Below, one piece after another: positions 6,912 through 52,830 of a stretch of DNA of 64,000 nucleotides. The position numbers and the translations under genes are program-made. The notes beneath the pieces are model-generated. The model worked only from the letters and a program-made list of their open reading frames with translations, did not search any database and had not been told where the DNA came from. The DNA comes from Torpedo marmorata (Eukaryota): assembly GCA_977017645.1 (NCBI GenBank), contig OZ360222.1, positions 181,164,001 to 181,228,000 on the forward strand, written 5' to 3'. Every line of letters begins with the position of its first letter. Position 1 is the stretch's first letter.

Positions 6912-8668
6912 TGGATTTTGCTTTCCACTTAAATCCCTTGTGCTTGGAATTATTTTATTTTCAAGCTGTTGACTCAGCACCAATTGATGTTTGCAGAAGG
7001 GAGTTCCAAATTTCCACCAAATTTTGCATGCAGAAGAGTTTCCTAATTATCTTTAGTGAAAGGACAAGTTTGAATTTTTAGGCTATGTCTTGTGGTCCTA
7101 GATTTTCCATTCAATGGAAATAATTTTCCTTTGTCAACCCCTTAATACCTGAACGAGATAGGATCTAACTACCTACCCATGGCTTTATCATTGTTGAGCT
7201 CCCCATCATTAATATCCTGGGGGCCATCATCCACCAGAAAGTCATATGAACAGGCAACATAACTACCATGAGTATAAGAGGCTGGGTATCCTGCAACAAG
7301 TGACTCACCTTCCAAGGGTTTTCCACCACCTGCCAAATCATCTCGTAATGTTTTAAATTCCAGTGAACACAGTCCCAGCTTGTATATTCTATCCTGGTAG
7401 ATAAATATTTGCAACAATCATTAAGATACAGTACTGCTGGCCAGAATTCAAGTGTACTGATCGAGAGACAGGAGCTGAGGATTAAATAAATCTGGAATGA
7501 AATAAAAAAACCAGTCTCAGTAATGGCAAGCACAAAACTGCTGGATGGTTGTAAAAACCCAACTGAATTGCGGAGGCTCTTTGGGGAATGGAATCTACTA
7601 CTCTTACCCAGCCTGACCTATGTGTGACCCGCAGACCAACCATTTACTATCTCCTCAGTTAAGGGCAATTCTGAGTTGGACAACAGTTGCCAGGATTGCC
7701 CATGATGTCCACACCGAATAAATGAACAAAGAAGTCCAATTCATTTGAATGCTCTTTAGCATTAAGAAATAATTAACTTTATTTTCAGGCAAGATTTTAA
7801 ACACATTGTCAGCTATGGAGAAGTGCAGGTAAGCAGATATGTACCATAGAGCCCTCCTACATTTCTGGGAACTGTGGAAACTGGCAATATAACTTGATTT
7901 CCGGTTTAGAACATTAACTGAGTTACCGGGTGGGAACTTGCAGCCAAAATAATATTTAATATTATTATATTAATATATTTAATATTAAACAACATATTGA
8001 GGATTATATCCATTAAAATTTATGAGTCTATTTGAATGGGCCTGGATTCTTTGAGGTTCTGCAGATCGTCCTCAACTGTTGTGATGGAAATGTCAGAGAA
8101 TTGCTGCTCTTAGCCATTTGCATTGCATTTCAGGGTGAATGTCATTGATTTTGTTCCAGCTGAGTGAATAGTCTTTGGTAGTCATTAGAGGAGGATAGAA
8201 CTGCAAAGCATTGGACTATTTAATTTGAGGCACCAGGATTCTGCATCAAAGGCCCAGGCTTCCATATAGTCCAGTCTAAGGAAAGCCCAGACTGGTCCAT
8301 TACAAGTGTTCCCAGTCGGGTAATCTCTGCTACATTCATCCGAGGGAAATTAGTAGCTTAGTGCAAACAATCTTGCTCACAGGATTATGGTTAGGATAAG
8401 GTCTGAACAGAGGATCCAATACAGATTGGGTTGGGACCTGCACTACTCAATTGTTTAACATCTGACGTAAAGTGAATCGTATAACCTTTGTTTACAGATT
8501 GCATGTAATTGAAAGAAGGAGGTAGCTTTGTGCAATTACTTTCAGAGACATTTGACCAAGTTAGGAATATTTGTGTTGAAATAACATTGATTGTAGCAAC
8601 AAAGTTAGCCTCTGAACCACAGACGAGCGCTTTGCTTGTTCACTGATTGACTTCATCCTTTGCTGCAG

Positions 8669-13830: not shown

Positions 13831-16584
13831 TCCTCCAATTTACGCCAGGCTGAAGTGCAATTCCTCCCCCAGGCTACTCTGACAGCTCCTCCCTAACCTG
13901 AGACTTCCACACCAAAGGCAGCAGATGCATGGGAGCACTACCACCTGCGGATTCCCCCCAAGCGCCATGCTGACTTTGAAATTTATCGCCGGCCTTTCAT
14001 TGTCGCTGGGTCTAAATTCCAGAACTTCCTCACCCAAACTGTGGGAACACCCTCACCAGAAGGACTTCAGCACTTCATGAAGGAGGCTCACCTTCACCCT
14101 CTCTGAGAGGTGACTGGGGGGGGCAGGGGGTATGGGCATTAAATGCTGGGCCAAATCTGCTGAGAATTGAAATCATAACATGAGAAAAGCAGACACTTTT
14201 TCTGCGGAAGCCTCTCCCAGGAGAGAGTGAACGCAGCAGGTGTGTGCCCTGCTTGGTCTCATCGTGACAGCCACAGCAACTAGTTCACATGACATGTTGC
14301 GAAGAGGGCAGCAACTGCGGGGAGAGCAGCTGGTGGGGAAGGGGGAATGAGGCATCCACACCATCCATTACAACAACTCCTGCTTTGTCATCCAACATCT
14401 CCTGTCGAACAGAAGTCAATCTGGACTTCCATCCAGCGGTGCTAAGCAAGTATCTTACCCCCAAAGCTAAGAAGAATAGCTTTACTGTGTATTATGCTTT
14501 TACAACCAAGCTGAAACCTCACCTCTCCCCTTCACAGGGAATCGGATTGGCTCTCTGTGTGATGGTAGAGCACAGATAGCAGCTGTGTTTCACAATTCCC
14601 TCCTGACTTCTGTTTCTGCTGAAGTCAGAATGAATTCCTGATGGGGAGAGATTTAAAACCTGGTGGCGGACTTTGCTGCTGCCTGCTTTCTCTCATGCAG
14701 AAAGGCTTGTTATTTTTGGGGTACTCTCAATATTGTTGATTTTGCCTGTACAATCAGTAAACCTTTCACATCTTATTATCTTACAAATGAGGCAAAGTTA
14801 TCCTTCTCTTCATTAGACCTGTTTGAAAGGGAAATGTTGTCCTGAACACCAAGATAGTTCCAATGTAGAGCTTTGCACGTCTGATAGCATTGTGGATAAA
14901 CACCTTACCATCTATAGAGTAATCCTTCAGTATACATACTACTAACATGGACAAACCCCAGATTGGAAAAGCACAAGAACTGCAGACGCTGGAATCTTGA
15001 GTGAACATAGTGAAGCTGGGGGTTTCAGTGGGTCAGGCAGCAGCCGTGGAGTGAAGTGGTCAGTTAATGTTTCGGGTCGGGACTAAAGTGGAAGGGGTGA
15101 TAGTATACCTCTCTCTGCTGTTTTATTGCTGACTTCATTCACAACAACTGATACAAGTACACACTTACCTTTTAAGGATCCATTAATATCCTGATAGCTA
15201 TCTTAATTTTCATTGGCATGGTCCTTCTGAATGAGCTCTTCTGAAGAAACAGTTGAGATAAAGATAACTGACTTAGCTACTCTCTTCATGCTGTCAAACC
15301 CAATAAAAACTTTGAATCTTTCTAACATTCAGGACCATTCAAAAACAATTAAAAATCAATCAATTGTATAATTTTAAACATGAAAAAAATAGAACAATTG
15401 AAACATGAAACTAACCTCAATTAGTCAAAATAAGTTAATGACCTCATATTTACCTTGACCCTTCACAGTTGTTCTTCTCAATTCAACAAAATAGTAAGTA
15501 TGAGCATATGGCTTCACTTGGTGCTGGGTCTTTCAGTGAGTCTGTCTCTCTCAGATTTCTGTTTCATTATTTGAAGGGGGAAAACCAGAAAATACTTAAA
15601 AACAGAGGAAAGTAGGTTTGCGGAATAAGTTACCAAAAGATGTGAAGAGCAAGAGATTTTATAAATGATCACTACTTAAGAGAGAGATAGAGGATGAAGA
15701 TATTGTCCACAGCAGGGAATTGGTCACTACAAAAAGGACCTGCTTGCTGCAAATTACTCTCTTTACTCCCAAAAAATGCTTACATTCAAGGCATGTATCA
15801 CTCACCACTTAAAAATAATTAAAATGCTTTATCACTTGTCTGACCTTTCCTAATGGTAAGGTTTGTCACCTAGATAAATGCACATTATGTGTCCATATAA
15901 AATTAATCTTGATTTTTGTCACTTATGCTACTGTGTCACTGGGTCTAATTCTTTTCAATGCCATTCTCAGGGCTCAGAGTGAAGGAATAGCAAATAGTCT
16001 AATGTTATTAAGGGTCGAGGCTATTATAAGATATGATTATTTAGCCATGAATGTTATTTCTTCCAGCCCTGACTTCTCTAGTGTTTAGTTGGTTACAAAT
16101 CAAGAAGGAATTTCTCCAGCTGACATCCTCAATCACCATGCAGCAGTGATATTTTGGGCAGGCGTGTACCAGTGCAGGCCCTGGTTAGCAACCGTTGCCA
16201 AGGGTAGGTGTTCAGTTCAGGAGTTGTAGAAGAGAGGATACTGGGAATGGATAAAATATATCAAACTCAATACAGATTACACAGTATTCAAAAGTTTTTA
16301 TTGCAAAGGTTGTCGTGGTCATCCGATCAACTTTTGTGTGAGCATTTTTCTTTGGGCTTTAGGGTTAGTACAGGTCGGGGTGTTCCATTCATACTTCGCT
16401 GCAGGCTCAGGGGATGCACTCAGGAATTTTCTGGATTTGATCGGGAGTCTGGTAATTGAAGGAATAATTGCAGGGTCTTTAAACTGAGCTCCAGGCAGCC
16501 AAGTCATTTGGAACCATATTTGGTGTGAAGTGCTGATGAAGATGTCAAGGTGGGTCATCTCCAGGCACCCCATGTGACATTCCT

Positions 16585-19370: not shown

Positions 19371-20729
19371 TTAACCTCTCCACTGTTAACAGCCATGTCA
19401 TCAGCTCCCAATAGCCTAAGTTCTGGAATTCCCTCAGAGTCTCCATCTCCATCTGTCCTTTTAAGATGTCGCTTGAAGCCTACCTCTTTGACCAAGGTTT
19501 TGACCACAAGCTGGACCTCAATGTTCTGCTCCTTGCCATATTAACAACTACCATCTGTATAATGAAAAAGAGGAAAGGGGTGATTGCTCAATGTCTACTG
19601 AAAACCATCACTTTAAAGAAAGAGTGCTGTTGAAATGTTGAATGTTTGACAATGTACAAAAAATGTAATACTCTGAAACTTAAATAAAGTTGAAAATAAA
19701 CCCTTGCTTAGTTATCAAACACAATTTCCATGAGTAAAAATAGATAAATTATCACCCAGTTGGTGGTGATTAGCATAAGGTGAATGTGAGGTTAACCCAA
19801 TCTTCATCCCCTTTTACCCTTGTCCATTGGCCTGCTTCTCCTTTCTCAACAACTCTCGTCACTAGTCCAGCCTGTGACAGTGATCGGATGCCCAAATCTG
19901 CAACCAAATAGGGTATTTATAGCATAGAGTTCTGTCCAGTCAGCTGCCGACTGCTTTATCACACTTGTGTATGTGTTTGTCTGCTGGTCAATCCTTATCG
20001 CATTTCTCCTGCTCCACGTGTACTGTCTGCCTGCTGGGATCCGTTAGTGGCTGTTTTCAAAGGAAGCTTCCAAGTTCTCCACGATCTAAGTGAAGAGAGT
20101 TGTGAAAGTCTTTCCCTGGAAGGTTTGTTTACAGTTGTGATGTGGAAGGGAATGAACACTTTCTTTCCCAATTGTTTCTCTGTCTCTCTCTCTTCTCAGT
20201 GTGTTCCGTTGGTCTTACATGGGGAGCTTGTGAGAAGGGTTATTTTTAGTCCCTACACGGACAGCTGTTGCTCCAGTACTGGGCTTCTCTCCCCGAGACC
20301 TCGCTGGGTCCATGAAGCTACTCGCTGCAGGAGTAGTCCATGTGCAAACGTTGACAGTGTGTGCGAGTTAGGGGTCAGTGAGTGGCGAGGGACGGGTGGA
20401 CTTGGGGATTACCGTTGATGGAGGGAAGGGATAGAAAAAGAAACGGGATTTAAGAACAATATCCAGTTGCTTTGTTGTGAAGAAGAGGGGTGGTTTGTTT
20501 TTCAGTCACTTTCCCATCAGTGGATGGCAACATCATCTTCTCAGTGGAAACAATAAGTAGGAGATGGGGATTGAGAGACCCCTCACATGTTCACCGATGC
20601 CCCCAATAGGTGGAAATCAGAGGGCATCTCCCTCTAGCCGCAGCCTTTCTAACTCCACAGCCTTCTAATATCCCATTCTCCTCACCTCCAGTCTTACCAC
20701 ACACCTTCCTCGTTTCTTGTTCCCTTCTC

Positions 20730-22680
20730 CCTTCCCATTCCGCCCCACTCCTCTCCCTCCCCCTCTCCTCTGCTCCCTTCCCCTCGCTCTCTCTCTTCCC
20801 TCCCCTCCTCCCCTCCTCCCCTCCCTTTCTTCCTCCCCCTCCCTTTCTTCCTCCCCCTCCCCTTCCTCCCCTCCCCTTCTTCCTCACCCTCCCCTTCTTC
20901 CTCCCCTCCCCTTCTTCCTCCCCTCCCTCCTTTCCTCCCCACCCTCCTTTCCTCCCCCTCCCTCCTTTCCTCAGCCTCCCTCCTTTCCTCCCCTCCCACC
21001 TTCCCCCCTTCCCTCCCATCCCCCTTCCCNNNNNNNNNNNNNNNNNNNNNNNNNNNNNNNNNNNNNNNNNNNNNNNNNNNNNNNNNNNNNNNNNNNNNNN
21101 NNNNNNNNNNNNNNNNNNNNNNNNNNNNNNNNNNNNNNNNNNNNNNNNNNNNNNNNNNNNNNNNNNNNNNNNNNNNNNNNNNNNNNNNNNNNNNNNNNNN
21201 NNNNNNNNNNNNNNNACCCTCCCCCTCCCTCCTTTCCTCCCCTCCCCTCCCTCCTTTCCTCCCCCTCCCCTCACTTCTTTCCTCCCCCTCCCTCCCTCCT
21301 TTCCTTCCCTTCCTCCTTTCCTCCCCTCCCCTCCCTCTTTTCCTCCCCCTCCCTCCTTTCCTCCCTCTCCCCCTCCCTCTTTTTCTCCCCCTCCCCTCCC
21401 TCCTTTCCTCCCCCTCCCCTCACTCCTTTCCTCCCCCTCCCTCCTTTCCTACCCGCCCCCTCCCTCCTTTCCTCCCCTCTCTCCTTTCCTCCCCCTCCCT
21501 CCTTTCCTACCCGCCCCCTCCCTCCTTTCCTCCCCTCTCTCCTTTCCTCCCCCTCCTTCCTTTCCTCCCCTCCCTCCTTTCTTTCCCCTCCCTCCTTTCT
21601 TCCCCCTCCCTTCTTTCCTCCCCTCCCCCACCCTCCTTTCCTCCCCCTCCCTCCTTTCCTCCTCCTCCCCATCTCCTCCTTTCCTCCCCCTCCCTCCCTC
21701 CTTTCCTCCCCCTCCCTCCCTCCCTCCTTTCCTCTCCTTTCTTCCTTTCCTCTCCTTTCTTCCTTTCCTCTNNNNNNNNNNNNNNNNNNNNNNNNNNNNN
21801 NNNNNNNNNNNNNNNNNNNNNNNNNNNNNNNNNNNNNNNNNNNNNNNNNNNNNNNNNNNNNNNNNNNNNNNCTCCCCCTCCCTCCCTCCTTCCTCCCTCC
21901 CCCCTCTCCCCTCCCTCCCACCCTCCTTTCCTACCCCTCCCTCCCCCTTTCCTCTCCTTTCCTCTCCATCCTCACCTTTCCTCTCCTTCTTCCTTTCCTC
22001 CCCTTTCCTCCCCCTCCCTCCCTCCCCTTCCTCCCCCTCCCTCCCTCCCCTTTCCTCCCCTCCCCTATCCTCCCCTCCCTCCTTTCCTCCACTTTCCTCC
22101 CCTCTCTCCCCTCCCCTTCTCCCTCCTCCCTCCCTCCCCTTTCACCCCCTCCCCTCTCCCTCCTTTCTCCCCCTCCCTCCTCCTTTCCTCCCCCTCTCTC
22201 CTTTCCTCCCACTCCCTCCTTTCCTCCCCCTCCCCATCCCTTCTTCCTCCCCCTCCCCTCCCTCATTCCTCCCCTCCCCTCCCTCTTTTCCTCCCCCTCC
22301 CCTCCCTCCTTTCCTCCCCCTCCCCCCTCCCTCCTTTCCTTCCCTCCCCTCTTTCCTCCCCATCCCCCTCCCTCCTTTCCTCCCTTCCCCTCCCTCCTTT
22401 CCTCCCCTTCCCTCCCTCCTTTCCTCCCCCTCCCTCCCTCCCCTTTCCTCCCCCTCCCTCCCCTCCCTCCCTCCCTTTCCTCCCCCTCCCTCCCTGGCCT
22501 TTACTCCCCCTCCCNNNNNNNNNNNNNNNNNNNNNNNNNNNNNNNNNNNNNNNNNNNNNNNNNNNNNNNNNNNNNNNNNNNNNNNNNNNNNNNNNNNNNN
22601 NNNNNNNNNNNNNNNNNNNNNNNNNNNNNNNNNNNNNNNNNNNNNNNNNNNNNNNNNNNNNNNNNNNCTCTCCCCTCCCC
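20730..22680. repeat. About 2-kb polypyrimidine/polypurine low-complexity tract (CCCTCCTTTCCTCC-like units) with three assembly gaps
   Basis: Almost pure C/T on the + strand; N runs at 21030-21215, 21772-21871 and 22515-22667. Confidence 0.95.
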
Positions 22681-22739
22681 TAGTTCTCCTTTCACTGAAC
22701 CCGCTGCACACTCCATCCTCTCTCTCCCTTACCCCAACC

Positions 22740-23190
22740 ACAACCATTCCTACAGTGACATGTCTATCCGGAGCCTTATCCATTGTCAGAGTGAGGCCAA
22801 ATGTGAACTTGAGCAATGACACATCACATTCCTCCTGGACAGTTTAAACCCCAAGGTATGAACATTAAATGTTTTTCTAATATTAGGTAACCCACCCCCA
22901 TCTGGTTCCACTGTTTCCATCTCTTCTTCACCTAATCGTTTAAAATATCCCCTTTCTTTAACTTTTCTCCCCCTCCCCCGCAACGGTCTGTCCCTTGACC
23001 CGTCTCTCCATCTCTCACACCTTCTGTCCTATTACCTCTGTGCCCTCCCAGCTTCTTTCGCTTTACATTTATAATTTTACCCTCTTTAGTCTTGATAAAG
23101 GGTCCAGACTCAGAGTGATGACTGACCATTTCTACCCATGAATGTTGTCTGGCCTGCTGAGTTCCTCCAGCAATTCTTTGTCTGCTCAAC
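22740..23190 (+). mobile_element. Diverged Penelope 3' fragment
   Basis: HSYSDMSIRSLIHCQSEAKCELEQ*HITFLLDSL followed by the family tail. Confidence 0.7.
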
Positions 23191-23673
23191 CTATATATAT
23201 ATATAGTACAGCAGAGAGTGTACGAATTAAATATAGTTTTACAATAAAACTAAAGTGCAGGGTGTGGTGTAACATCAGACAAAAGTGCAGAGCATAATGT
23301 TAAAGAGAAAAATAAAGTTAAAACAGTGCAAGGCATCATCTTATACTGATGGGAGGTCGATTCAACATACTAATAACAGCAAGAAATGAACTGTCCTTGA
23401 ATCTGGCGGTGCGAGTTTTCAAACTCGTGTAACTTCTGCCTGACCCTATGGGGGAGAGGATGCGATGTGTCCTTTAATATTTTGGCTGCTTTCCCAAGGC
23501 AGAAGGGGTTGAAGATAGAGTAAGAATTTTGGTGCATATGTACATTGTACAATAGACATGACAATAAATTCATTATCATTAGAGTCTGTGGAGGGGAGGT
23601 TGGTTTGTGTGATTTGAGCTGAGTACTGATCAGTTGTAGGGTTTGGAGCATTTGAAGTTAGATGATTCAGTGG

Positions 23674-24052
23674 CAGGGGCAATATGCCCCATGCGGTAGG
23701 ATTGAACAGTTCCAACAGGGGCAATATGCCCCATGCGGTAGGATTGAACAGTTCCAACAGGGGCAATATGCCCCATGCGGTAGGATTGAACAGTTCCAAC
23801 AGGGGCAATATGCCCCATGCGGTAGGATTGAACAGTTCCAACAGGGGCAATATGCCCCATGCGGTAGGATTGAACAGTTCCAACAGGGGCAATATGCCCC
23901 ATGCGGTAGGATTGAACAGTTCCAACAGGGGCAATATGCCCCATGCGGTAGGATTGAACAGTTCCAACAGGGGCAATATGCCCCATGCGGTAGGATTGAA
24001 CAGTTCCAACAGGGGCAATATGCCCCATGCGGTAGGATTGAACAGTTCCAAC
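23674..24052. repeat. Perfect minisatellite, 9 x 42 bp (CAGGGGCAATATGCCCCATGCGGTAGGATTGAACAGTTCCAA)
   Basis: Nine identical contiguous units with no spacers. Confidence 0.97.
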
Positions 24053-24301
24053 TGTGCTCACATCTCTCTCCACAGATGCTGGCTGATCTTCTGAGTATTT
24101 CTGGTATTTTCAGTTCTGATTCTAATGGGGAACTTGCCTTGACAGTCAGATGTAACATAGGATCATGGATGCTGGTTGTTCTTCTGGGGATTCTTGGCTA
24201 GAGGTTAGCAGCAAATGGGCAAGTTGGTTTTTCAAATATTTGACATTATTTCTTTTTGTTTTCATGTGCTTTTTTGTCAAATGTATTTTTAAAATATGTT
24301 A

Positions 24302-34039: not shown

Positions 34040-34522
34040 TGATGAGTTATTGTCATAAACATTATACAATGTACATATGCACCAAAATTCTTACTTGCAG
34101 CCAAACAGGTACATGTAAAGAAAAACTATAATTGTAAACTAAGTAAATTAAATTAAAAGAAACAATAACTTCTGAGATAGATAGTAAATATTCACAGTAA
34201 TTCTAGTGCAAAAAAGTGACACAATGGTGCAGATGGTCCTTTTGTGGTGTCGGAGCAGTCCCTGATCAGTGTAACAAGGGGAGGTTCAAGAGTCTGATAG
34301 CCATTGGAAAGAAACTGTTCTTGAACCTAGAGGTGCTGGTCTTCAGGCTTCTGTACCTTCTGCCCGAAGGTAGCAGTGAGAAGAGATCGTGACCAGGGTG
34401 ATGGGGATCCTTTATAGTACTGGCAGCACCTCTTTGCAATGGATGGAGGTCGGAGCCTGTGATGGACCTGGTGACGTTTGCCACCTTCTGCAGCCTTCTG
34501 TGTTCCTGGGCACTCCAACATG
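34040..34522 (-). mobile_element. Rex1/Babar 3' fragment
   Basis: ORF 34266-34484 reads [37 protein letters not shown]. Confidence 0.8.
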
Positions 34523-34589
34523 ATCAGTTTCTATTTCAGCTTCCCACTGTCTGTAGTTTCTTTGATTTTGAGCTTTTATTAAAGGTAAG

Positions 34590-35175
34590 TGTAAGAGCCG
34601 TAGGCTCGTTAACTTACCGTTGTTGCGGCGCTCCGATGTCTCGGCGGCCCGTTCGGAGCGCTCGCGTTGTCTGTGGGCCGTTCTCGGCCCGTTCTGTGCT
34701 CTGCGCATGCGCTGGAGTGCCGACGGGCGCGTGCGCAGTTTGGAGTGACGTCATTGTGCGCGGTGCAGTCTGGGAGATGTAGTGTGCGCGGTGGACGGTG
34801 CGCAGTGTTATGGGAGCGACGGAGCATGCGCGAATCGGGTAGAGGAGGAAAGGAATAGAATAAAGGAAAGATGGAGATTTAGGAGGGTGAGTGAGATCTC
34901 CATATCTTTATTGACCGTTTTTACAGCGTTTTATAGTGTTTTATAACGTCTTATACATCGTTTTGGAATTGTTTAAAGAATCATTTAAAGAAATTCATCA
35001 TACATCATTTCAAGAACTGTTTATATTGAAGTCATTGAAGATTACTGCAAGTCACGTGTGTAAATAAAGGTTTTAAACATATTGGACTTTCTTGGTAAAT
35101 TAATTAAAACGCGTCAAAGACAAGTATCTCACTTAGCCTCCAGGTGACTATTGTTGGATCGAAGTCACCATAATA
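34590..35175 (+). repeat. 5' LTR
   Basis: TGTAAGAGCC...CACCATAATA; I count about 5 substitutions relative to the 3' LTR. Confidence 0.93.
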
Positions 35176-35622
35176 TAGTCAATAAAGAGGCTGTTTGGAA
35201 CAGAAAATTGAAGGAAAGAAGATAGAATAATCTCTCTGTGCTTTGGACTGATATATAAAATGGTGGCCATCTTGGAGATGCCTCGAGTTGGGGGCAGTTT
35301 GTAATCTACATCCATCTGCCATGAAAAACAGCCAGAGAGGGATTTAAAGCTTCAAATCTTATAATAAAGTGTCCTATAAATACGTTGGAGAAACCATTTT
35401 TGGAAAATCAGTGATATTAGTGATGGATGTTGTGGTTGAAACTCGTTTGTGGATTGCAGCACATTACAGTCATTTGAAGTGGTAGGCATAAGTCTGTGGA
35501 CTCCTTCTGTGTATCTTTAGCAAGTAAGAACACAGATTGGAATTGCTGCCGCTGGTCCATTGGGGACTGTTGTTTGGCTAGTGTTGTGTATGCTTGAAGG
35601 AAAGAGGAACAAGACGAGTAAA

Positions 35623-38600
35623 ATGGCCGCAGCAGCCTCTGATACAGCAGCTACTGATGTATCAGCAGCTGACGCAGCAACCGCTGATGTTGCTGTTGAG
35701 GACCAACGTATTGAAGACATGAAGGTTGCGGATATTAAAGAAGAATTGAAGCGACTGAAAAAGGACATAAGTGGAAATAAAAGGGCTCTTATCGAAAGAT
35801 TAAAGCAGGCAAAGGATGAAGAGGCAGCTTCATTAGTTGAACAAGAAGATAACTTGGAAATGGCTGAAATTGTGTCAACAAATGATGAAGAAATTAAAGT
35901 GGTTGAAGATGCAAAGGATATACAATTTGAATTGGATAAAGAGGTAAGTATGAAGACAGCATATGAACTGCAGGACGAAATACAAGCAAGTGACAGTGTC
36001 TCAAATGCTGAAAGCAGGAGAAGCAAAAGAAGTTCTGGTTCGAGCTCCAGAGTTTCTCGTACTTCAAGTTCTGCATCGTCACGTACAAAGGTTGATGTTA
36101 AATTGGCCGCTCTTCTTGCACAACAAAAAACGCTTAAGGATAAGTATATTTTGGAAGAAGAGGAGGAGCAGCTAAGACAAAAGGAGGAGCAGCTAAAGGA
36201 GCAGCTAAGACAAAAGGGGGAGCAGGTAAAGGAGCAGCTAAGACAAAAGGAGGAGCAGCTAAAGGAGCAGCTAAGACAAAAGGAGGAGCAGCTAAAGGAG
36301 CAGCTGAGACAAAAGGAGGAGCAGGTAAAGGAGCGGCTAAGACAAAAGGAGGAGCAGCTAAGACAAGAGGAGGAGCAGCTGAGACAAAATGAGAAACAGC
36401 TAAAGGAGCAGCTAAGACAAAATGAGAAGCAGCCAATGGAGCAGCTAAGACAAGAGAAGGAGCAGCTAAGGAAGAGAAAAGAACAGCAGGAGCTGGAAGC
36501 AAACATTGCTATTGCCAAGGCAGAAAAGAAAGCAATAGAAGGCTCAATGGTATCTGGTGCTAGCAGTAAATTATCTAAATTGTCTGATAATAAAAGGTCA
36601 TATTTAAAAAAGGAGTCACAGGAAAAGAAACCAACCAAAAGGATAGATATTTTAGAACCAAGGATACAAAACTTACATATACAAGGACAAACCTTTCAAG
36701 AGCATATTGGTATCGAGTCACATGTACCAATAGTAACATCTGAAAGCAAAGCTGCGGCTTGGGTTCGGTCGAACGAAGCAGCATCTTTGTTATATGAGTC
36801 AAGCATCAGAAATATGGAAGAAACTACACCAGTGAGGTTTCCAGATACATTGCATGCAACAAGAGACGGTGAACAGAGCAATGTATTGTCATCCAAGGAA
36901 AGACAGAATGAAACTGCTGCATCATTGTTTCAGTTACAGTCTCTCTCTTCTTTACCCAAGAAAGAGATACAAACTTTTGATGGTGATCCACTTCAATATC
37001 AATCATTTATGAGATCTTTCAAAAGCAATATTGAAGATAAATGTCAAGATCGTGATGAATGTCTTTATTATTTGGAAATGTTCACAAAGGGACATCCAAA
37101 AGAACTGGTAAAGAGTTGTAAACAAATGTCTTCAGAAAGAGGATTAGACAAAGCTAAGGCTTTATTGGAACAATATTTTGGCAACAAGCATCGAATTGCT
37201 TTAGCTTATATGGATAAAGCTCTTAAATGGACATCAATAAAACAAAATGATGTAAAGGCTCTGCAAGAATATACTTTGTTTTTAAGAGGATGTTGTAATG
37301 CTATGGAAGAAATTGATAATATTCGTGAGCTTGAAGTGCATAGTAATATGCGAATCATCTTAGAAAAATTACCTTACAAGTTATGGGATAGATGGAGAGA
37401 TTTGGCTTGTGATTTACAAGTAGATTACGGTCGAAAAATTACCTTAAAGGATTTGGTAAATTTTCTTGAACGACGGGTGTACGTTGAAACGGATCCACTA
37501 TATGGAAATACCAGAGATAATTCGATGGGCAAAGATGTAAGGAAGTCTAACACACAGTCTAGTCCGAAATTAAAAAGGAGTACTTTTGCTACTAATGTGC
37601 AAGTTATAAGTAAAGAAAATGACAAAGTAAATAAGGAAAAGGAAAGTTTGCCAAATGAAAAGAGTTGTTTGTTCTGTAAAGATGGACATGCTTTGGAAAT
37701 GTGTTTACGATTGGAAAAGAAGGAACATAAGGAAAAGATCGCTTTCTTAAAGGAAAATGGAATATGTTTTAGCTGTCTGTGTAAAGGGCACATCAGTAAA
37801 AACTGCGAGAAGCGAATTAATTGTAACATATGCAATTTGAAACATCCTAGAATTTTGCATATCCATAACAGAAACAAGGAATTGGAAATGGAGCAAACAG
37901 AAACAAAGGAAACAACAGAAAATAATGTTATAACCTCGGTTCAGACAAGTGGTCTTACTGGGGCCGGGGTGAATAACTGCAAACTTTCAATAGTGCCTGT
38001 ACAAGTCAAGGCCAAGAAAGGGGATGTAATAGTAAAAACATATGCATTTTTAGACCCAGACAGCACTGCATCTTTTTGCACGGAAGGACTAATGAATAAA
38101 CTTAATATTCAAGGAAAAAGATCAAGAATTATGTTAAAAACCATGGGACAAGAAAAGGTTGTTGAAACTAACATTATAACAGGCTTAGAGGTTGCTGGAT
38201 TGGATGACAAAAAATGTTGTGATCTTCCAAGTGTATATACTCAGAAGACTATGCCTGTGAATGAAGGAAATATTCCTCATCAAAGGGATATCCATCATTT
38301 AGCTTATCTGTGGAAGGTTTATTTACCTGAAATTAATTCTGAGATAGAAATGCTGATTGGTTCAGATGTGCCAAAGATTTTGGTACCAAAAGAAGTAATA
38401 GAAAGTAAAAGGAATGGACCTTATGCTGTTAAAACCATTCTTGGTTGGACAATCAATGGACCAATGGAAAGAAATAATAATATTGCTCAGGAACAGGTAG
38501 CGATAAATATTAATAGAATTTCGGTTGAGAAAGTTGAAGAGTTAAGCGAAGAGCAAAAAACTGTGAATAAGAAAATCACTTTTGAAGAAAAGAAAACAGA

Positions 38601-38655
38601 TCAATGTGAAAATAAATCAATGGTATTTAAAACAACATTGAAGGAATTAATTTAG
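35623..38655 (+). CDS. SAP domain + BEL/Pao Gag (DUF1759 capsid, three Cys/His knuckles) + aspartic protease; 1010 aa from the likely ATG
   Basis: SAP IEDMKVADIKEELKRLKKDISGNKRALIERLKQA; Gag LPKKEIQTFDGDPLQYQSF; knuckles CLFC..H....C, CFSC....H....C, CNIC...H...LH; protease TYAFLDPDSTASFCTE...GPYAVKTILGWTINGP. Confidence 0.9.
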   Translation: MAAAASDTAATDVSAADAATADVAVEDQRIEDMKVADIKEELKRLKKDISGNKRALIERLKQAKDEEAASLVEQEDNLEMAEIVSTNDEEIKVVEDAKDIQFELDKEVSMKTAYELQDEIQASDSVSNAESRRSKRSSGSSSRVSRTSSSASSRTKVDVKLAALLAQQKTLKDKYILEEEEEQLRQKEEQLKEQLRQKGEQVKEQLRQKEEQLKEQLRQKEEQLKEQLRQKEEQVKERLRQKEEQLRQEEEQLRQNEKQLKEQLRQNEKQPMEQLRQEKEQLRKRKEQQELEANIAIAKAEKKAIEGSMVSGASSKLSKLSDNKRSYLKKESQEKKPTKRIDILEPRIQNLHIQGQTFQEHIGIESHVPIVTSESKAAAWVRSNEAASLLYESSIRNMEETTPVRFPDTLHATRDGEQSNVLSSKERQNETAASLFQLQSLSSLPKKEIQTFDGDPLQYQSFMRSFKSNIEDKCQDRDECLYYLEMFTKGHPKELVKSCKQMSSERGLDKAKALLEQYFGNKHRIALAYMDKALKWTSIKQNDVKALQEYTLFLRGCCNAMEEIDNIRELEVHSNMRIILEKLPYKLWDRWRDLACDLQVDYGRKITLKDLVNFLERRVYVETDPLYGNTRDNSMGKDVRKSNTQSSPKLKRSTFATNVQVISKENDKVNKEKESLPNEKSCLFCKDGHALEMCLRLEKKEHKEKIAFLKENGICFSCLCKGHISKNCEKRINCNICNLKHPRILHIHNRNKELEMEQTETKETTENNVITSVQTSGLTGAGVNNCKLSIVPVQVKAKKGDVIVKTYAFLDPDSTASFCTEGLMNKLNIQGKRSRIMLKTMGQEKVVETNIITGLEVAGLDDKKCCDLPSVYTQKTMPVNEGNIPHQRDIHHLAYLWKVYLPEINSEIEMLIGSDVPKILVPKEVIESKRNGPYAVKTILGWTINGPMERNNNIAQEQVAININRISVEKVEELSEEQKTVNKKITFEEKKTDQCENKSMVFKTTLKELI
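36161..36480 (+). repeat. In-frame coding tandem repeat (33/21-nt units, EEQLRQKEEQLK) in Gag
   Basis: About 10 units of GAGCAGCTAAGACAAAAGGAG(GAGCAGCTAAAG). Confidence 0.9.
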
Positions 38656-38899
38656 TCAGAAATGGATGAAAGTGAAGTATTAGAAGATGTTGCAAATAAT
38701 ACTATTGATCATTCATGTGTAATTGAATCAAATACAGGAATAAAACAAGTGACTGAAAACAAATCTGAATGTAGATTTTGTAGTTCAGAGATTACAACAG
38801 ACAAAGCTAATGAAGAAATATTGCAATGTGATGTAAAACTGGAAAACACAGAAAATTGTGCTGATGGAATAAAGAATAATGTGAATGATAATCTAATGC

Positions 38900-39435
38900 A
38901 ATTGAATTCAGAGAACAAAATGTTGAAAGGGGAATTGGAAATATTAGATAATCAAGAAAACAGTAGACAAAAAGATTTAATTGTAAGTAAAACTCGCAAT
39001 GTCAGAAAGCGGAAGAAAAGAATAACTGCTGAAGAAATGAATACAGTTATTGAGGAAAGAGATACAGCATTATCAAAATGTAAAAGGTTGGAGGAAGAAA
39101 TTAATGTTTTGAAAGAGAACAAGTTATTGGTTAATAACACAACAGTTGACTTTAAAAACCAATCAAAAATGTAAATTGAATATTCAACAATTAACAATGC
39201 AGAAAGAATGTGATATTGCATTGCAGAAATGTAACAAACAAGATGAAGAAATTAAAAAATTTCAAGTTTGTCGCAACAGGATTGACAATGGAAATATCAA
39301 CGTATTACATGATATTTTGACTTCAGATCAAATTATTAATTTCTCGGAAAGAACTGAGACCGAATTGAAAGTTGCAAAATTGGATTTAGAATTGCAGGAA
39401 AGAGCCATAGAAACCAGAGTGGTTAAACAGACCTG
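38900..39435 (+). pseudogene. Captured MIPOL1-like coiled-coil fragment inside the LTR element
   Basis: RITAEEMNTVIEERDTALSKCKRLEEEI versus human MIPOL1 as I recall it, RITAEEMSALIEERDAALSKCKRLEQEL; the similarity continues across a frameshift. Confidence 0.7.
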
Positions 39436-39639
39436 TTTAAAATCGAAAGGATCAGATAAATATTCAAATTCTAATTCTAAGAGTTTAAATTCTTCACATG
39501 AAAAGTGGAATACTGAAGAAAGGAATAAAGTGAAACGACATGCTGAAGAAGTGCCTTGTGTTAAATTTAAAAAAAACTGTATCTATTTTGTCTGAGGAAG
39601 ATTTGAGGTTTACTGGTTGACGTTTTAACTCAGATTATG

Positions 39640-39840
39640 AAGATAAAAGAACTTTAAAGAGACATTGTGATTATTATGGATAATTCAACTTCAAGAAACT
39701 CCTGGTTACTTGGAAAAATTATTGAGACTTTTCAAGACAAAGAGGACTTGTGCGTCAAGTGTGAATTAAAACTAAGACTGGTTTTTCGAAACAGACCTAT
39801 TAACAAGGTCTGCCTTTTGTTGGAGACAGAGGAACTTTGA
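39640..39840 (+). pseudogene. BEL/Pao integrase C-terminal (DUF5641-type) remnant
   Basis: DIVIIMDNSTSRNSWLLGKIIETFQDK/GLVRQV*IKTKTG/RPINKVCLLLE, with compensating frameshifts. Confidence 0.8.
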
Positions 39841-40042
39841 TAAATATAAACTGACTTTATTTGTTGTTGTATATTTCACAGGTTACAGACTTTTGTTGAA
39901 TCAGAGTTATGGTAAACTCTAGATTTATGAAGAAGGAAGAAAGAAGATTTGTATTGTTTGAATGTTACGGTTATTGTTATTATAATTTATAGTGTAATTA
40001 TTATTCAAGACATTGCGTCTAATTATAATAATTAGGGGCCGG

Positions 40043-40628
40043 TGTAAGAGCCGTAGGCTCGTTAACTTACCGTTGTTGCGGCGCTCCGATGTCTCGGCGG
40101 CCCGTTCGGAGCGCTCGCGTTGTCTGTGGGCCGTTCTCGGCCCGTTCTGTGCTCTGTGCATGCGCTGGAGTGCCGACGGGCGCGTGCGCAGTTTGGAGTG
40201 ACGTCATTGTGCGCGGTGCAGTCTGGGAGATGTAGTGTGCGCGGTGGAGGGTGCGCAGTGTTATGGGAGCGACGGAGCATGCGCAAATCGGGTAGAGGAG
40301 GAAAGGAATAGAATAAAGGAAAGATGGAGATTTAGGAGGGTGAGTGAGATCTCCATATCTTTATTGACCGTATTTACAGCGTTTTATAGTGTTTTATAAC
40401 GTCTTATACATCGTTTTGGAATTGTTTAAAGAATCATTTAAAGAAATTCATCATACATCATTTCAAGAACTGTTTATATTGAAGTCATTGAAGATTACTG
40501 CAAGTCACGTGTGTAAATAAAGGTTTTAAACATATTGGACTTTCTTGGTAAATTAATTAAAACGCGTCTAAGACAAGTATCTCACTTAGCCTCCAGGTGA
40601 CTATTGTTGGATCGAAGTCACCATAATA
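40043..40628 (+). repeat. 3' LTR
   Basis: Direct repeat of 34590-35175, preceded by the PPT. Confidence 0.93.
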
Positions 40629-42639
40629 GTAAGTTTCAGACCTTTTTTAATTTTGTGGGACTCCCTCCCATAAGGTGGCAGGACCAAAGGCAGCACCCAT
40701 TTAGTTCAAGTTTATTGTCATATATATAAGTACAATGTGCATATGCCCGAATTCTTACTTGCTGCAGCTGAACAGGTGCATAAAATACACCAACTATGCT
40801 AGTATACATTTAGTACACCAAAATCAGGTGAAATCCCATTCCAAGATACATTACATCTGCTGTTGCCACTGAGCGTTTCCAGTTTTTGTGTTGTAATTTC
40901 ACATTTGAATGATCTTCTTTTCTCTTTGGGTCTGGTCGGGGAAGCTGTTAGCCTGGCAGATGATTTGTTCTACCTGAATAGCTGTTTAGGTCACAAACTG
41001 AATAACCAGCCTGAAAGTCACTCATCTTGTTCCCTTTTTTAAAAACTGAGGGTGACCTCCTGCATTTCTACTAAGCAGCAAAGTCCCATCTGAATTCATT
41101 GCTGGGAGCAACTCGGTGGTGATGGAGCCCAGCTCCTTGTTCCCATGACTCGGGAAGCTTTATATAGATGCAAATCAGACAGAACTTAGCTTGGGCTCCC
41201 GATGACAAACGTGCCTGCAAGGCTGATGAGGCAATGATACCTCCCAGAAAGGGCATGGTTCTCATTTAGACAACCAGGTCACATTGTTCATTAGTCCTGA
41301 CTGGTGCACTATTCTTGAAGGGAACCTAGAAAGGGAAGAAACATGACATTTCAACATCAATTCTCAGCTACCGATTACTGCGATATACTTCCAGCTTGGC
41401 TGGTTCAAGGCCAAACATTTTTATTTTGCCTGAGAAACGAGCCTTCAAATCAAACACACCTAAGAAAGTATACCAGGAACTAAAGGCTCCAAGATGAAAA
41501 GTGTGCAGTTGGGTGTAGGTAACTCCAACAATTGTTTAAGAAGAGCCTTCTGGATTTCCCACACCACTTTGGTATGTTAGACGTCTGTGCTGTGGGAATG
41601 GGTGGCAGACAGTTTCTGCACACAAGTAAACAGCATGATGTTGGCCTGATTTCAGGGATCATGATTTAGGGATAAATTGAATTGAATTATTTATTGTCCG
41701 AGATACAATGAATAACTTTATTTTGCATGCTATCCAGGCAACCTCCACATTGTACAGCAAGGGGAGCTATATATATATAATGTAAAAATATAATGTTATA
41801 ATAAAACAGAAGTACCTGGAGTAGAGTTGAAGAGAATTCAGTAAAACACCAGGGAATGTCATAGAGTCATATCTGTAAGGAAACAGGCCCTTCTGCCTAT
41901 CCACACCATGATCACCCTCGTGTACCTATCTCCATTAAGCTGATGTGAATCCTGTTTTATTCTTCCCCACATTCCCATCGTCCTCCCTCCGATTCTATCA
42001 CTCACCTGCATATGAGTGCCAATTTACCGTGGCCAATTAAACTTCCAATCTGCGTGTCGTTGAGATGTGGGAGGACCCTTGTTCTGCCTTGAAGTCAAAC
42101 AATGGCCAGTGAGTGACCAGCTGAGAGAGTGGGCAGGCCTTTCAATACCTCAGTCATAAAGTTGGTTTGGAATGGACTTCCAAGAAGGTGGAAAAGAACA
42201 CCGCTTGTCTCATTTAGGGAGGAATTTTGTGCGACAATACGGAACGTTCTATTCCAGGTGGTAGAATTAAATGAGCTGAATGGATATCCTTATCTGTGAA
42301 TATTAGATTTTGAGGTTGGTTCCTTGAGAGAAAAATAGGTGGAACCATTGATGTGAATGGAGATAGTTGAGAGGCAGTATTTATTGCCCCAGGAGTAGTC
42401 TGTGCTTCCATCAGTAGCACCACTACAAAATGTGGAGTTAGTCCTCGAGTCCACCTGACTCACTGATATACCCCTGGGAGGGAGACTTCCTCTCCTTATC
42501 TGCTCAGATAATGACTCCAGAACTATGAACGTGTTGACTCCTTACTATCTGTGGAAGGGTCGCAGAGTAATGTTGCCCTTACTCTGTTCGAACTGATCTC
42601 TCACTGTAACCCTACTCTCTGTACTATGTTTTACTCTGC

Positions 42640-50119: not shown

Positions 50120-51815
50120 GAAACAGCCTACAAAGCGAGGGCGAACACTATAGACGGCTGTGATGCTTCACTACCCGATGAGCTGAACACCTTCTATGCC
50201 CGCTTTGAGAAGAGGAACCAAACAGTGCCTACTAGAATCCCTGAAAAGGCTGAGGACCCTGTGATATCTGTCTCTGAGGGCGACGTCAGAACATCATTCA
50301 AGAGGGTGAACCCTCGCAAGGCGTCAGGCCCTGACGGCGTACCTGGCAGGGTATTGAAAATCTGCGCCAACCAACTAGCCGGAGTGTTCACGGACATTTT
50401 CAACCTCTCATTGCGGCAGTCAGAGGTTCCTACCTGCTTCAAAAGGGCATCAATCATCCCGGTACCCAAGAAGAGTAGTGTGAGCTGCCTCAACGACTAC
50501 CGCCCGGTAGCACTAACTTCTACTGTGATGAAATGCTTTGAGAGGCTGGTCATGGCCAGAATTAACACATACCTAAGCAGAGATCTGGACCCACTGCAAT
50601 TCGCCTATCGCCACAATTGCTCCACAGCAGATGCAATATCGCTGGCTCTCCACTCAGGTCTGGATCACCTTGAAAACAGCAATTCATACATACGGTTGCT
50701 CTTCATCGACTACAGCTCGGCCTTCAATACCATTATTCCCTCAGTGCTGGTCGAGAAGCTACAAACTCTAGGCCTCTGTACCCCCCTCTGCAACTGGATC
50801 CTTGACTTTCTCATCGGAAGACCACAGTCAGTACGAATTGGAAACAATGTCTCCTCCTCACTGATTATCAACACAGGCGCACCCCAAGGATGCGTGCTTA
50901 GTCCACTGCTCTACTCGTTATACACTCATGACTGTGTGGCCAGGCACAATTCCAATGCCATATACAAGTTTGCCGATGACACCACAGTTGTCGGCAGAAT
51001 CACAAACGGCAATGAGGAAGCGTACAGGAGGGAGATAGATCAGCTCGTTGAATGGTGTAATGACAACAACCTTGAGCTCAATGTCAGCAAAACCAAGGAG
51101 ATGATTGTGGACTTCCGGAGGAAGTCAGGGGAACACGACCCAGTCCTCATCGATGTCTCAGTCGTGGAGAGGGTCAAGAACTTCAAATTCCTGGGTGTCA
51201 ACATCTCCGAGGATCTGTCCTGGAGCATCCACGTGGATGCAATCACAAAGAAGGCTCGTCAGCGGCTATACTTTGTGAGGTGTTTGCGGAGATTCGGTAT
51301 GTCAGCAAAGACTCTCGTAAACTTCTACAGGTGTACCGTGGAGAGCATTCTGGCTGGTTGCATCACTGCCTGGTATGGTGGCGCCAACTCCCAGGACAAG
51401 AGTAAACTCCAGAAGGTTGTTAACTCGGCCTGTGACATCACAGGCACCAAACTTCACTCCATCGAGGACATCTACATGAGGCGGTGTCTTAAAAAAGCAG
51501 CCGCTATCCTCAAGGATCCCCACCACCCAGGCCATGCCCTCTTCACTCTGCTTCCATCGGGGAAAAGGTACAGGAGCCTAAAGACGAGCACTCAACGGCA
51601 CAAGGACAGCTTCTTCCCCACTGCCATCAGATTCTTGAATAATCAATGAACCAAAGACACTACCTTACTTTTCGTGCACTATTGTTTATAATTTTTTATA
51701 GTAATGTCGTTAGAATGGTTAATATGAATGTTAAATGCACTATGATGCTGCCGCAAAACACCGAATTTCATGACTTGTTCATGACAATAAATTCTGATTC
51801 TGTTTCTGATTCTGA
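50120..51815 (+). mobile_element. 5'-truncated Rex1/Babar-type LINE with an uninterrupted RT frame (open 50120-51649)
   Basis: [50 protein letters not shown] and a DUF1891 C-terminus; tail AATAAATTCTGATTCTG; the endonuclease is absent. Confidence 0.93.
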
Positions 51816-52056: not shown

Positions 52057-52830
52057 CTAAATTCAGGATTCGAGATTCTTTTATTGTCATGTAATAAAAC
52101 AGATGTAATATTACACGAAAATGCATTTAGTCTGCCATAAGGTAGACTTCAGTCCAAACCATCGGCAACCTAAGCTCCAGATCCAAACCTCCAACACGAT
52201 CAGGAAGCCTTCAACACCCTTGGCACCCTCTCACATCCCTGTTTCCATACCTGGTACCCCTTCAGCTAGTCTCGAGCCGTCTCCAGCAGTCCGTAGCCTG
52301 GTGAGAGACCTTTGACCGTAAACACCAGCAGCCTGCAGCCTGGTGAGAGACCTTTGACCGCAAACACCAGCAGCCCGCAGCCTGGTGAGAGACCTTTGAC
52401 CGCAGACACCAGCAGCCTGCAGTCTGGTGAGAGACCTTTGACCGCAAACACCAGCAGCCTGCAGCCTGCGTGGGTTCCTCGCCTCGAGTCATCAACAGCC
52501 TGCCCCCTTTGGGTCCTTCAGCCACTGAGCCCCTTGCTGGTCCTCCGCCATGGTCACCGTCCCATAGTGTCGTCCCCTCTGCTTCTCCTTCTCATATTGG
52601 GGGGGGGTGGTCTCCCCATTTCCTGATGCCCTGTGCCAGTCGTCTGCTTCTCCGGAGTCTGTAACCCCTCGAGGCTGCTGCTGAACACAGGCACTGCCAT
52701 CTTGGGCCCAGACCCCGCAGTTGCAGTATTTTAAAATAAACCACTCTTGGCTCCTTTAACAAGCTGTTTAAAGTCTGTATGGAGCTATCTGTAGTTGGAC
52801 AGGGTGGTAGAACCCTGTAGAGGAACGCTG
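52057..52830 (-). mobile_element. GC-rich non-autonomous retroposon inserted in a V-SINE
   Basis: Same family as 46800-47575; the host SINE resumes at about 52835. Confidence 0.65.
52284..52467. repeat. Tandem repeat, about 4.4 x 42 bp (CAGCAGCCTGCAGCCTGGTGAGAGACCTTTGACCGCAAACAC)
   Basis: Visible units, and a 14-aa periodicity in the ORF track. Confidence 0.9.

Follow-up and report, generated by a model that had tools for sequence, protein, structure and literature searches.

A BEL/Pao element in which pol is replaced

The 64,000-nucleotide stretch of Torpedo marmorata DNA analyzed here (contig OZ360222.1, positions 181,164,001 to 181,228,000; hereafter the window) contains an element bearing the features of BEL/Pao retrotransposons: two long terminal repeats (LTRs), a 5-bp target-site duplication (TSD), a polypurine tract, and a Gag with three Cys-His motifs followed by a protease (Table 1). 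This last arrangement is a BEL/Pao trait. The single frame of autonomous BEL/Pao elements, encoding Gag, protease, reverse transcriptase (RT), RNase H, and integrase, is absent from the window element and present in related pol-bearing elements, which we call helpers. The window element is a non-autonomous BEL/Pao derivative. A preliminary description of this locus had reported a perfect TSD and LTRs with about five differences in 586 bp; the same 5 bp were found on both sides, and the LTRs differ at exactly five positions. They end in TG...TA rather than TG...CA, as do those of the helpers, and in the four helpers shown the first 41 nt of the 5' LTR match exactly or with a single difference. 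Toward its 5' end (34610-34830 and 40063-40283) the LTR is GC- and CpG-rich, with a CpG observed/expected ratio of 1.45 over the LTR, and this portion is far more variable among copies than the interior.

Pol-bearing elements align with the window element over Gag-protease at 86-95% identity. The alignment ends at 38556 and resumes at 39659, within about 20 bp of the limits first proposed (38545 and 39640), and 1,102 bp in the window element stand in place of ~3,190 bp of pol. This insert is absent from the autonomous relatives, as the initial reading of a captured segment requires. Pfam searches of the window element detected two domains only, SAP (aa 30-63) and, in the tail, DUF5641, while the Gag/protease families DUF1759/DUF1758 gave weak matches only, in a helper and an older copy.

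Table 1. Features of the window element (MIPOL1 exon letters are labels of the present analysis).
Feature	Position	Strand	Basis or remark
Whole BEL/Pao element	34590..40628	+	TSD and LTR pair
Left TSD, 5 bp	34585..34589	.	Flank comparison
Right TSD, 5 bp	40629..40633	.	Same 5 bp as left flank
5' LTR, 586 bp, TG...TA ends	34590..35175	+	
SLTM-derived start context and SAP domain	35612..35826	+	Host exon 1 spliced to start of exon 2; common to helpers; 3' limit estimated from protein
1010-aa frame of window copy	35623..38655	+	Truncated version of the family's ~1,300-aa Gag-protease-cargo frame
Tandem coiled-coil repeat, 33/42-nt, length variable	36131..36525	+	Also in helpers
Gag core and three Cys-His motifs	36952..37865	+	Motifs read from sequence
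Aspartic protease region	37984..38551	+	Catalytic motif near 38053 non-canonical in window copy
Captured BRCA1 mRNA	38552..38980	+	Short exon spliced to start of large exon
Captured MIPOL1 exons g (3' part), h, i, spliced	38973..39276	+	
Back-splice-type junction, end of exon i to start of upstream exon c	39276..39277	+	
Captured MIPOL1 exons c (5' part) and d	39277..39432	+	Shortened by in-frame family deletion
Captured Elongin A (ELOA) mRNA	39421..39632	+	End of large exon plus a later exon
Integrase C-terminal remnant (DUF5641)	39659..39840	+	Out of frame
Polypurine-tract-like stretch 5' of 3' LTR	40033..40042	+	Identical in a helper
3' LTR, 586 bp	40043..40628	+	Exactly 5 differences from 5' LTR

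The window copy is broken. Its open frame, running from 35623 to a stop codon at 38653-38655, has the reported length of 1010 aa, but the Gag-protease is not intact as the preliminary description held. In comparison with all five siblings compared, the window copy carries this stop and frameshifts near 39140 and 39571, and its protease catalytic motif is non-canonical, unlike those of all 37 sibling matches. Two siblings encode Gag, protease, and the inserted segment (the cargo) in one frame of 1,312 and 1,278 aa, and in 18 of 37 sibling loci the frame is open between the protease end and MIPOL1 exon d. Protease matches lay within frames of 1,255-1,382 aa in 23 of 150 cases and in none near 2,000 aa (counted by eye). 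Projected onto the window, the family frame ends at 39618-39620, within the ELOA piece.

The cargo matches spliced BRCA1, MIPOL1, and ELOA RNAs

The upstream piece of the insert had four matches among 1.84 billion proteins, and the three that were looked up are all BRCA1. With a sibling insert as query, MIPOL1 accounted for at least 120 of 186 matches, all those listed carrying its Pfam domain (best match Pristis, E 5e-24), and all 76 matches of the downstream piece were ELOA. We located the host donor genes on sequences C40, C41, and C61 of the same genome assembly (G000, 6.2 Gb) and mapped their exons one by one. The earlier claim of host-derived domains at both ends can thereby be given named donors. 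In the window, the BRCA1 pieces are 70% and 78.5% identical to host exons on G000:C61, with an 8.7-kb host intron missing; MIPOL1 is 73-89% identical to its exons; and ELOA is 78.6% and 89.3% identical to exons on G000:C41, where the host exon has 90% identity to a Narcine bancroftii protein. Older copies carry exons of all three genes joined without introns at ~90-100% identity. Every piece lies on the sense strand and in the host frame, and intronless partial host mRNA within a discontinuous LTR element, the hallmark of an LTR-mediated retrocopy, is present. Judged by these alignments, the cargo is a mosaic of spliced host RNAs from BRCA1, MIPOL1, and Elongin A. Three other identities were considered and rejected: degraded pol for the insert as a whole, and Elongin A or an older MIPOL1 (the latter from Atlas feature matches with low shared-feature counts) for the upstream piece, which is BRCA1.

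A sister lineage, represented by L226 (G000:C60 14.62 Mb) and L227 (C50 16.86 Mb), has the order ELOA 5' piece-BRCA1-MIPOL1-ELOA-IARS1, following Gag-protease and a short RT tip. Its additions are a leading piece of ELOA (aa 95-170) and a trailing piece of cytoplasmic isoleucyl-tRNA synthetase (IARS1; ~165 aa, E 1.8e-69), in the same frame apart from scattered stops. Because both lineages have the same BRCA1-MIPOL1 and MIPOL1-ELOA junctions, the core mosaic probably arose once and was later added to. Six older copies (L153, L160, L200, L203, L248, and L249) retain two more spliced BRCA1 exons and a short RT tip, and the ELOA exon encoding aa 474-513 is found in some copies and missing from others, including the window copy. 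In young copies, Pfam detected no cargo piece; these copies lack the RING, BRCT, and Elongin A domains and keep no known functional donor domain whole.

A back-splice-type junction in the MIPOL1 segment

The MIPOL1 exons in the element are ordered g-h-i-c-d-e, with g represented by its 3' part and e by its first ~19 nt. Where i meets c, the final base of exon i (GT follows it in the host) directly abuts the first base of exon c (AG precedes it in the host), and no base has been gained or lost. This exact junction occurs in 40 of 40 older locus records that hold both ends, representing ~30 distinct places, and its 25-mer is found at 433 genome sites within one mismatch. A non-colinear junction at exact splice sites, as expected of a pseudogene derived from circular RNA (circRNA), is thus present. 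Exons c-i sum to 780 nt, and a circle of that composition has one stop-free frame. Only exons within the circle are represented: MIPOL1 aa 25-210 and aa 469-567 match the host locus alone, the search with aa 25-210 having used a stricter first look, so that its result is a floor. The out-of-order junction is a signature of circular RNA, and capture of the MIPOL1 piece from such a molecule appears likely.

The same junction could have come from linear RNA, by trans-splicing or exon repetition, from a tandem duplication since lost from the host, or from a chance template switch within the mRNA. The captured sequence amounts to only ~590 of the 780 nt, less than one turn of the circle; the linear mRNA has 3 nt of microhomology at both points; and Dong et al. 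(2016, PMC4897178) noted other routes to non-colinear junctions. However, a chance switch landing on both a splice donor and an upstream acceptor is improbable (order 1e-4, as a rough estimate), the other capture junctions examined all fall inside exons, and the 330-kb host MIPOL1 interval has a single copy of exon c. MIPOL1 circRNAs are moreover listed, at the level of the gene, for mouse and human in the accessible parts of three sources (PMC9888537, PMC8176118, PMC8783515). We therefore consider these linear-RNA and duplication routes unlikely and favor a circular source.

One copy, L232 (G000:C42 9.56 Mb), contains tandem 405-bp repeats of MIPOL1 g-h-i-c pieces. These were rejected as evidence of rolling-circle copying, since exons d-f are missing.

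An abundant family and its pol-bearing helpers

A 26-nt cargo motif was found at 15,706 sites within one mismatch in the whole assembly, a number that includes tandem arrays and truncated copies and is a floor, as the motif recovered 37 of 39 family loci in one set, 27 of 30 in another, and 3 of 6 intermediate ones. A pol motif, present in 41 of 46 pol loci, was found at 2,538 sites; both controls gave 0. Cargo sites thus stand to pol sites at ~6:1. At an average of 5.9 kb per copy, cargo copies would occupy ~90 Mb, or 1.5% of the assembly, as an upper estimate. Two LTRs were found at 23 of 39 cargo loci, with a median LTR identity of 97.7% and at least 14 distinct perfect TSDs. The chimeric interior is therefore multicopy, as the preliminary description had supposed, and copy number and distinct TSDs bear out further rounds of transposition. 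The 30 best protease matches are all cargo-bearing. Other arrangements include head-to-tail copies with a common LTR (L034/L037, G000:C45 62.48 Mb), an array of five motif matches spaced 4,964 bp (G000:C1 1.498-1.518 Mb), four cargo-bearing copies in introns of the host MIPOL1 gene, three of them sense-strand (L166, L172, L180, L181; G000:C40 64.34-64.50 Mb), and one (L223) ~40 kb beyond the last ELOA exon found.

In each of the 11 pol-bearing elements fetched, a single frame spans 2,018-2,134 aa, and the two LTRs are 97-100% identical. A 2,050-aa helper frame contains Peptidase_A17, RVT_1, rve, and DUF5641 in Pfam searches, and helpers also have the SAP domain and the coiled-coil repeat. The LTR ends are common to the window element and the four helpers shown, and the polypurine tract to one shown; the predicted autonomous partner with matching LTR ends accordingly exists. 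No env family was found in the helpers, whose frame stops ~200 nt before the 3' LTR. Mobilization of the pol-less family in trans by these helpers is likely.

With the protease-cargo-tail stretch divided into 30 bins, contigs from run X5 cover all of them, and the cargo is also covered by short contigs in runs X2 (30 bins), X6 (29), and, shallowly, X4 (24). X5 is spliced RNA from another organism; given the copy number, intronic read-through or DNA could explain this coverage, and we did not use it as evidence.

The SAP domain derives from SLTM and was likely captured before the cargo

When the SAP region of an older copy was used as query, all 39 matches were SLTM or SAFB. In all eight best-matching copies, the SLTM sequence runs from the last part of the 5' UTR through the start codon and exon 1, with 82-89% identity, and exon 1 is spliced to the first ~20 bases of exon 2 (100% match). 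In the window, 35715-35774 is 73% identical to host SLTM. MIPOL1 was not found in the fetched stretch of any of these eight copies, six of which have RT or RNase H matches and one an integrase tail only. The SAP capture therefore belongs to the autonomous lineage, and SLTM was likely captured first, before the cargo. The ratio of nonsynonymous to synonymous substitution rates (dN/dS) between host and young SAP is 0.13-0.20 (35 codons, with saturated dS), suggesting that the domain has been kept under purifying selection since its capture. In mouse and fly cells, SAFB proteins including SLTM suppress L1 and LTR elements, according to the accessible part of one report (PMC10901741). Taken with that account, a conserved SAP domain from a transposon-suppressing host family suggests a captured part of the defense.

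The reading frame stays open while the sequence drifts

The frame was examined in 69 young copies not chosen for their frame, of which 66 were scored. Young cargo has diverged from host exons by 18.6%, with base changes mainly G to A, C to T, and C to A, yet the cargo holds 0.39 stops per copy where ~10.6 were expected on an analytic estimate. Upstream of the terminal stop, which 62 of 65 copies have in common, no single site holds a stop in over 3 copies. The seven family-level deletions relative to older copies (24, 120, 81, 195, 3, 3, and 111 nt, read across five alignments, with single copies differing by 1-2 nt) are all multiples of 3. Cargo dN/dS is 0.63-0.72 against older copies and, against host, 0.71-0.93 for MIPOL1 and about 0.5 for ELOA, suggesting that the amino acids are weakly constrained. 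The open frame places the stop codon 423 nt before the 3' LTR, versus ~1,490 nt otherwise. Decay of RNAs with long 3' UTRs is an established mechanism, and the open frame may protect the element RNA from it, a proposal that we favor at roughly even odds.

The principal rival to decay avoidance is that the cargo works as an accessory protein, a protease-released BRCA1-MIPOL1-ELOA piece with a coiled coil and a basic stretch, comparable to a gag-onc fusion. Survival of the frame through such divergence, dN/dS below 1, the roughly sixfold excess of cargo over pol sites, and the sense, in-frame placement of every piece would all fit such a role. However, constraint is far weaker than in other parts of the element (dN/dS of 0.13-0.20 for SAP, near 0.2 for the Cys-His region, and about 0.25-0.4 for Gag and protease), ~540 of 1,614 nt have been lost by deletion, and no donor domain of known function survives whole, which makes an accessory protein doubtful in our view. 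We give still less credence to camouflage, in which small-RNA silencing of the element would also strike essential host genes and so be escaped. The donors are important genes, and the idea has been described for plant elements in the accessible part of PMC13317346, but camouflage does not predict an open frame, and the commonest copies are the least host-like, the exact MIPOL1 junction being found at far fewer sites than the cargo motif. Camouflage is accordingly very improbable.

Sequence exchange with helpers

In a protease tree of 31 rows, made without three loci that gave short matches, old pol-bearing copies are intermixed with old cargo copies, and young pol-bearing copies nest among young cargo copies (100/100 on a long branch). 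A single cargo clade was rejected by the approximately unbiased (AU) test (p 2e-66) and again on a longer region with 34 rows (AU p 0.00056). Base drift could draw young rows together, yet not to 93-97% identity. In addition, BEL 3' sequence resumes at helper ~7,195-7,222 in 10 of 10 old copies and at ~7,052 in 10 of 11 mid and young copies. This point lies ~150 nt earlier in the later copies, which therefore likely regained sequence from a pol-bearing element. As judged from these comparisons, the cargo and helper lineages have exchanged sequence.

A backbone swap had also been argued from dS (0.7-1.0 in Gag versus about 0.3 in cargo), but its control failed. At four-fold sites, Gag, protease, and cargo change at similar per-base rates, and the dS gap is attributed to A/T drift; we thus base the exchange on the trees and the 3' breakpoint. 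As a separate observation, comparison of a young cargo copy with helpers gives a dN/dS of 0.55-1.13 for protease (37984-38517) and of 0.23-0.47 for the Gag core, pointing to a relaxed or divergent protease after pol loss.

Other features of the window

A 509-aa frame at 50120-51646 (+) encodes a LINE-type reverse transcriptase with Pfam ALKBH8_N, and a fragment related to it adjoins the element at ~34266-34530. Two different 42-bp tandem repeats lie at 23590-24136 (six identical registers) and 52283-52492, and a long C/T-rich simple repeat broken by three N runs at 20700-22800. A tRNA gene search across the window found none.

Proposed origin and significance

We consider it probable that the window element is a broken copy of an abundant pol-less BEL/Pao family in which an in-frame mosaic of spliced host RNAs replaces pol, with a circular-RNA source for part of the mosaic and mobilization in trans both likely. 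In this scheme, an autonomous BEL element would first have taken SLTM exon 1, with its start codon and SAP domain, and a derivative would then have lost pol to serial captures. Host RNA was likely captured by template switching of the reverse transcriptase, in the case of MIPOL1 likely from circular RNA. The sister lineage would have added the 5' ELOA piece and IARS1, and the young lineage would have shortened its cargo without breaking the frame and exchanged Gag, protease, and 3' sequence with helpers. The pol-less element would make its own Gag, helpers would supply pol in trans, and selection may have acted mainly on keeping the frame open.

Several points weigh against this reconstruction. 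Circular MIPOL1 RNA, element protein, and transposition are each inferred from DNA sequence. Junction microhomologies are only 2-4 nt or blurred by ~10 unassigned bases, in a comparison that did not use the donor BEL of capture time. Cargo dN/dS below 1 is compatible with some protein-level constraint, and A/T-ward drift biases the estimate. The expected number of stops is a one-step figure that pools the rates of base change, and the 66 copies, being related by descent, test a single lineage. Finally, decay avoidance leaves unexplained why ~1.1 kb of cargo was retained instead of deleted. A bolder version, in which the lineage builds parts from both linear and circular host RNA, SAP serves as chromatin tether or counter-defense, and the mosaic is a protease-released accessory protein that lifted copies to 6:1 and up to ~1.5% of the genome, strikes us as unlikely.

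This genome holds a stepwise record of RNA capture by an LTR element, with five donors, nested captures, and copies at ~95% to 81% host identity. A back-spliced fragment lying between two LTRs and beside ordinary mRNA pieces supports packaging and template switching as a route by which circRNA enters genomes. In a natural element, selection for an open frame would thereby be separable from that acting on the protein, and thousands of natural stop-bearing copies make the decay-avoidance idea testable. In practical terms, the presence of ~15,700 BRCA1-, MIPOL1-, and ELOA-like fragments will complicate gene annotation, read mapping, and circRNA calling for these rays.

Comparison with known systems

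The literature search, with Repbase and subscription papers outside it, found no report of this family, of SAP in a BEL Gag, or of MIPOL1 capture. Each ingredient has precedent; for the combination, scale, and frame retention, no report was found in the literature searched. The preliminary description knew of no report of this architecture in BEL/Pao. One capture by a mosquito BEL element is described in the accessible part of PMC5131818. The reading of host capture given in that preliminary description is supported, and none of the three refuting conditions that it named was observed. It needs amending in three respects: the window copy is broken, SAP is not specific to cargo copies, being in helpers too, and the cargo is fused in frame, not merely carried.

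Judging from the accessible parts of the sources cited for it (PMC13317346, PMC5131818), maize Bs1 is similarly an LTR element with transduced segments from three host genes in a chimeric reading frame. Bs1 is a plant element discussed as a new host gene, whereas the ray family is a vertebrate BEL/Pao lineage at 15,706 sites, with four donors in the window copy, five across the family, and one of them back-spliced. LTR-mediated animal retrocopies, including mosquito BEL18_AG and the mouse four-gene 'Super' retrocopy, likewise consist of partial intronless sense-strand pieces in an LTR element, with several parents and further copying (Tan et al., 2016, PMC5131818). In the accessible text, each species has a few such loci, and of 21 older ones 14 have loss-of-function changes. 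Unlike these, the ray mosaic is fused to Gag-protease, has stayed open through 18.6% divergence, and outnumbers its pol-bearing relatives by ~6:1. Mouse circRFWD2 pseudogenes resemble the MIPOL1 piece in having an exact back-splice junction in DNA at many loci, near LTR-element internal sequence (MMERVK10C-int; Dong et al., 2016, PMC4897178). That study reported 33 high-confidence copies, left the mechanism open, and described no in-frame fusion (PMC4897178). The ray MIPOL1 piece differs in lying between other captured mRNAs, between two LTRs, and inside the Gag frame.

The likeness to acutely transforming retroviruses drawn in the preliminary description holds for architecture alone; no env was seen, however, and the cargo protein is weakly constrained. 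E26, an acutely transforming retrovirus with gag-myb-ets, fuses gag to two host genes. It and the ray family share a Gag fused in frame to several host genes that replace pol, and a need for a helper. Unlike E26, the ray element has no env seen, is a germline element, shows no sign of oncogenic selection, and carries cargo that drifts and shrinks. Of the features that define a transducing retrovirus, Gag fused to host coding sequence with pol lost was found; an enveloped retroviral lineage was not, the helpers having no env family; and for a conserved captured protein, dN/dS of 0.5-0.93 (sequence estimates) and progressive deletion were observed. Crocodilian endogenous retroviruses (ERVs) with KIT-ligand or nectin3 also show capture of host mRNA by a vertebrate LTR element followed by amplification; in the accessible part of that report, they carry one host gene each in 6-9 copies, are under purifying selection, and are retroviral, not BEL (PMC4299795). 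The ray element is an LTR-mediated retrocopy, architecturally like a defective transducing retrovirus, yet not one.

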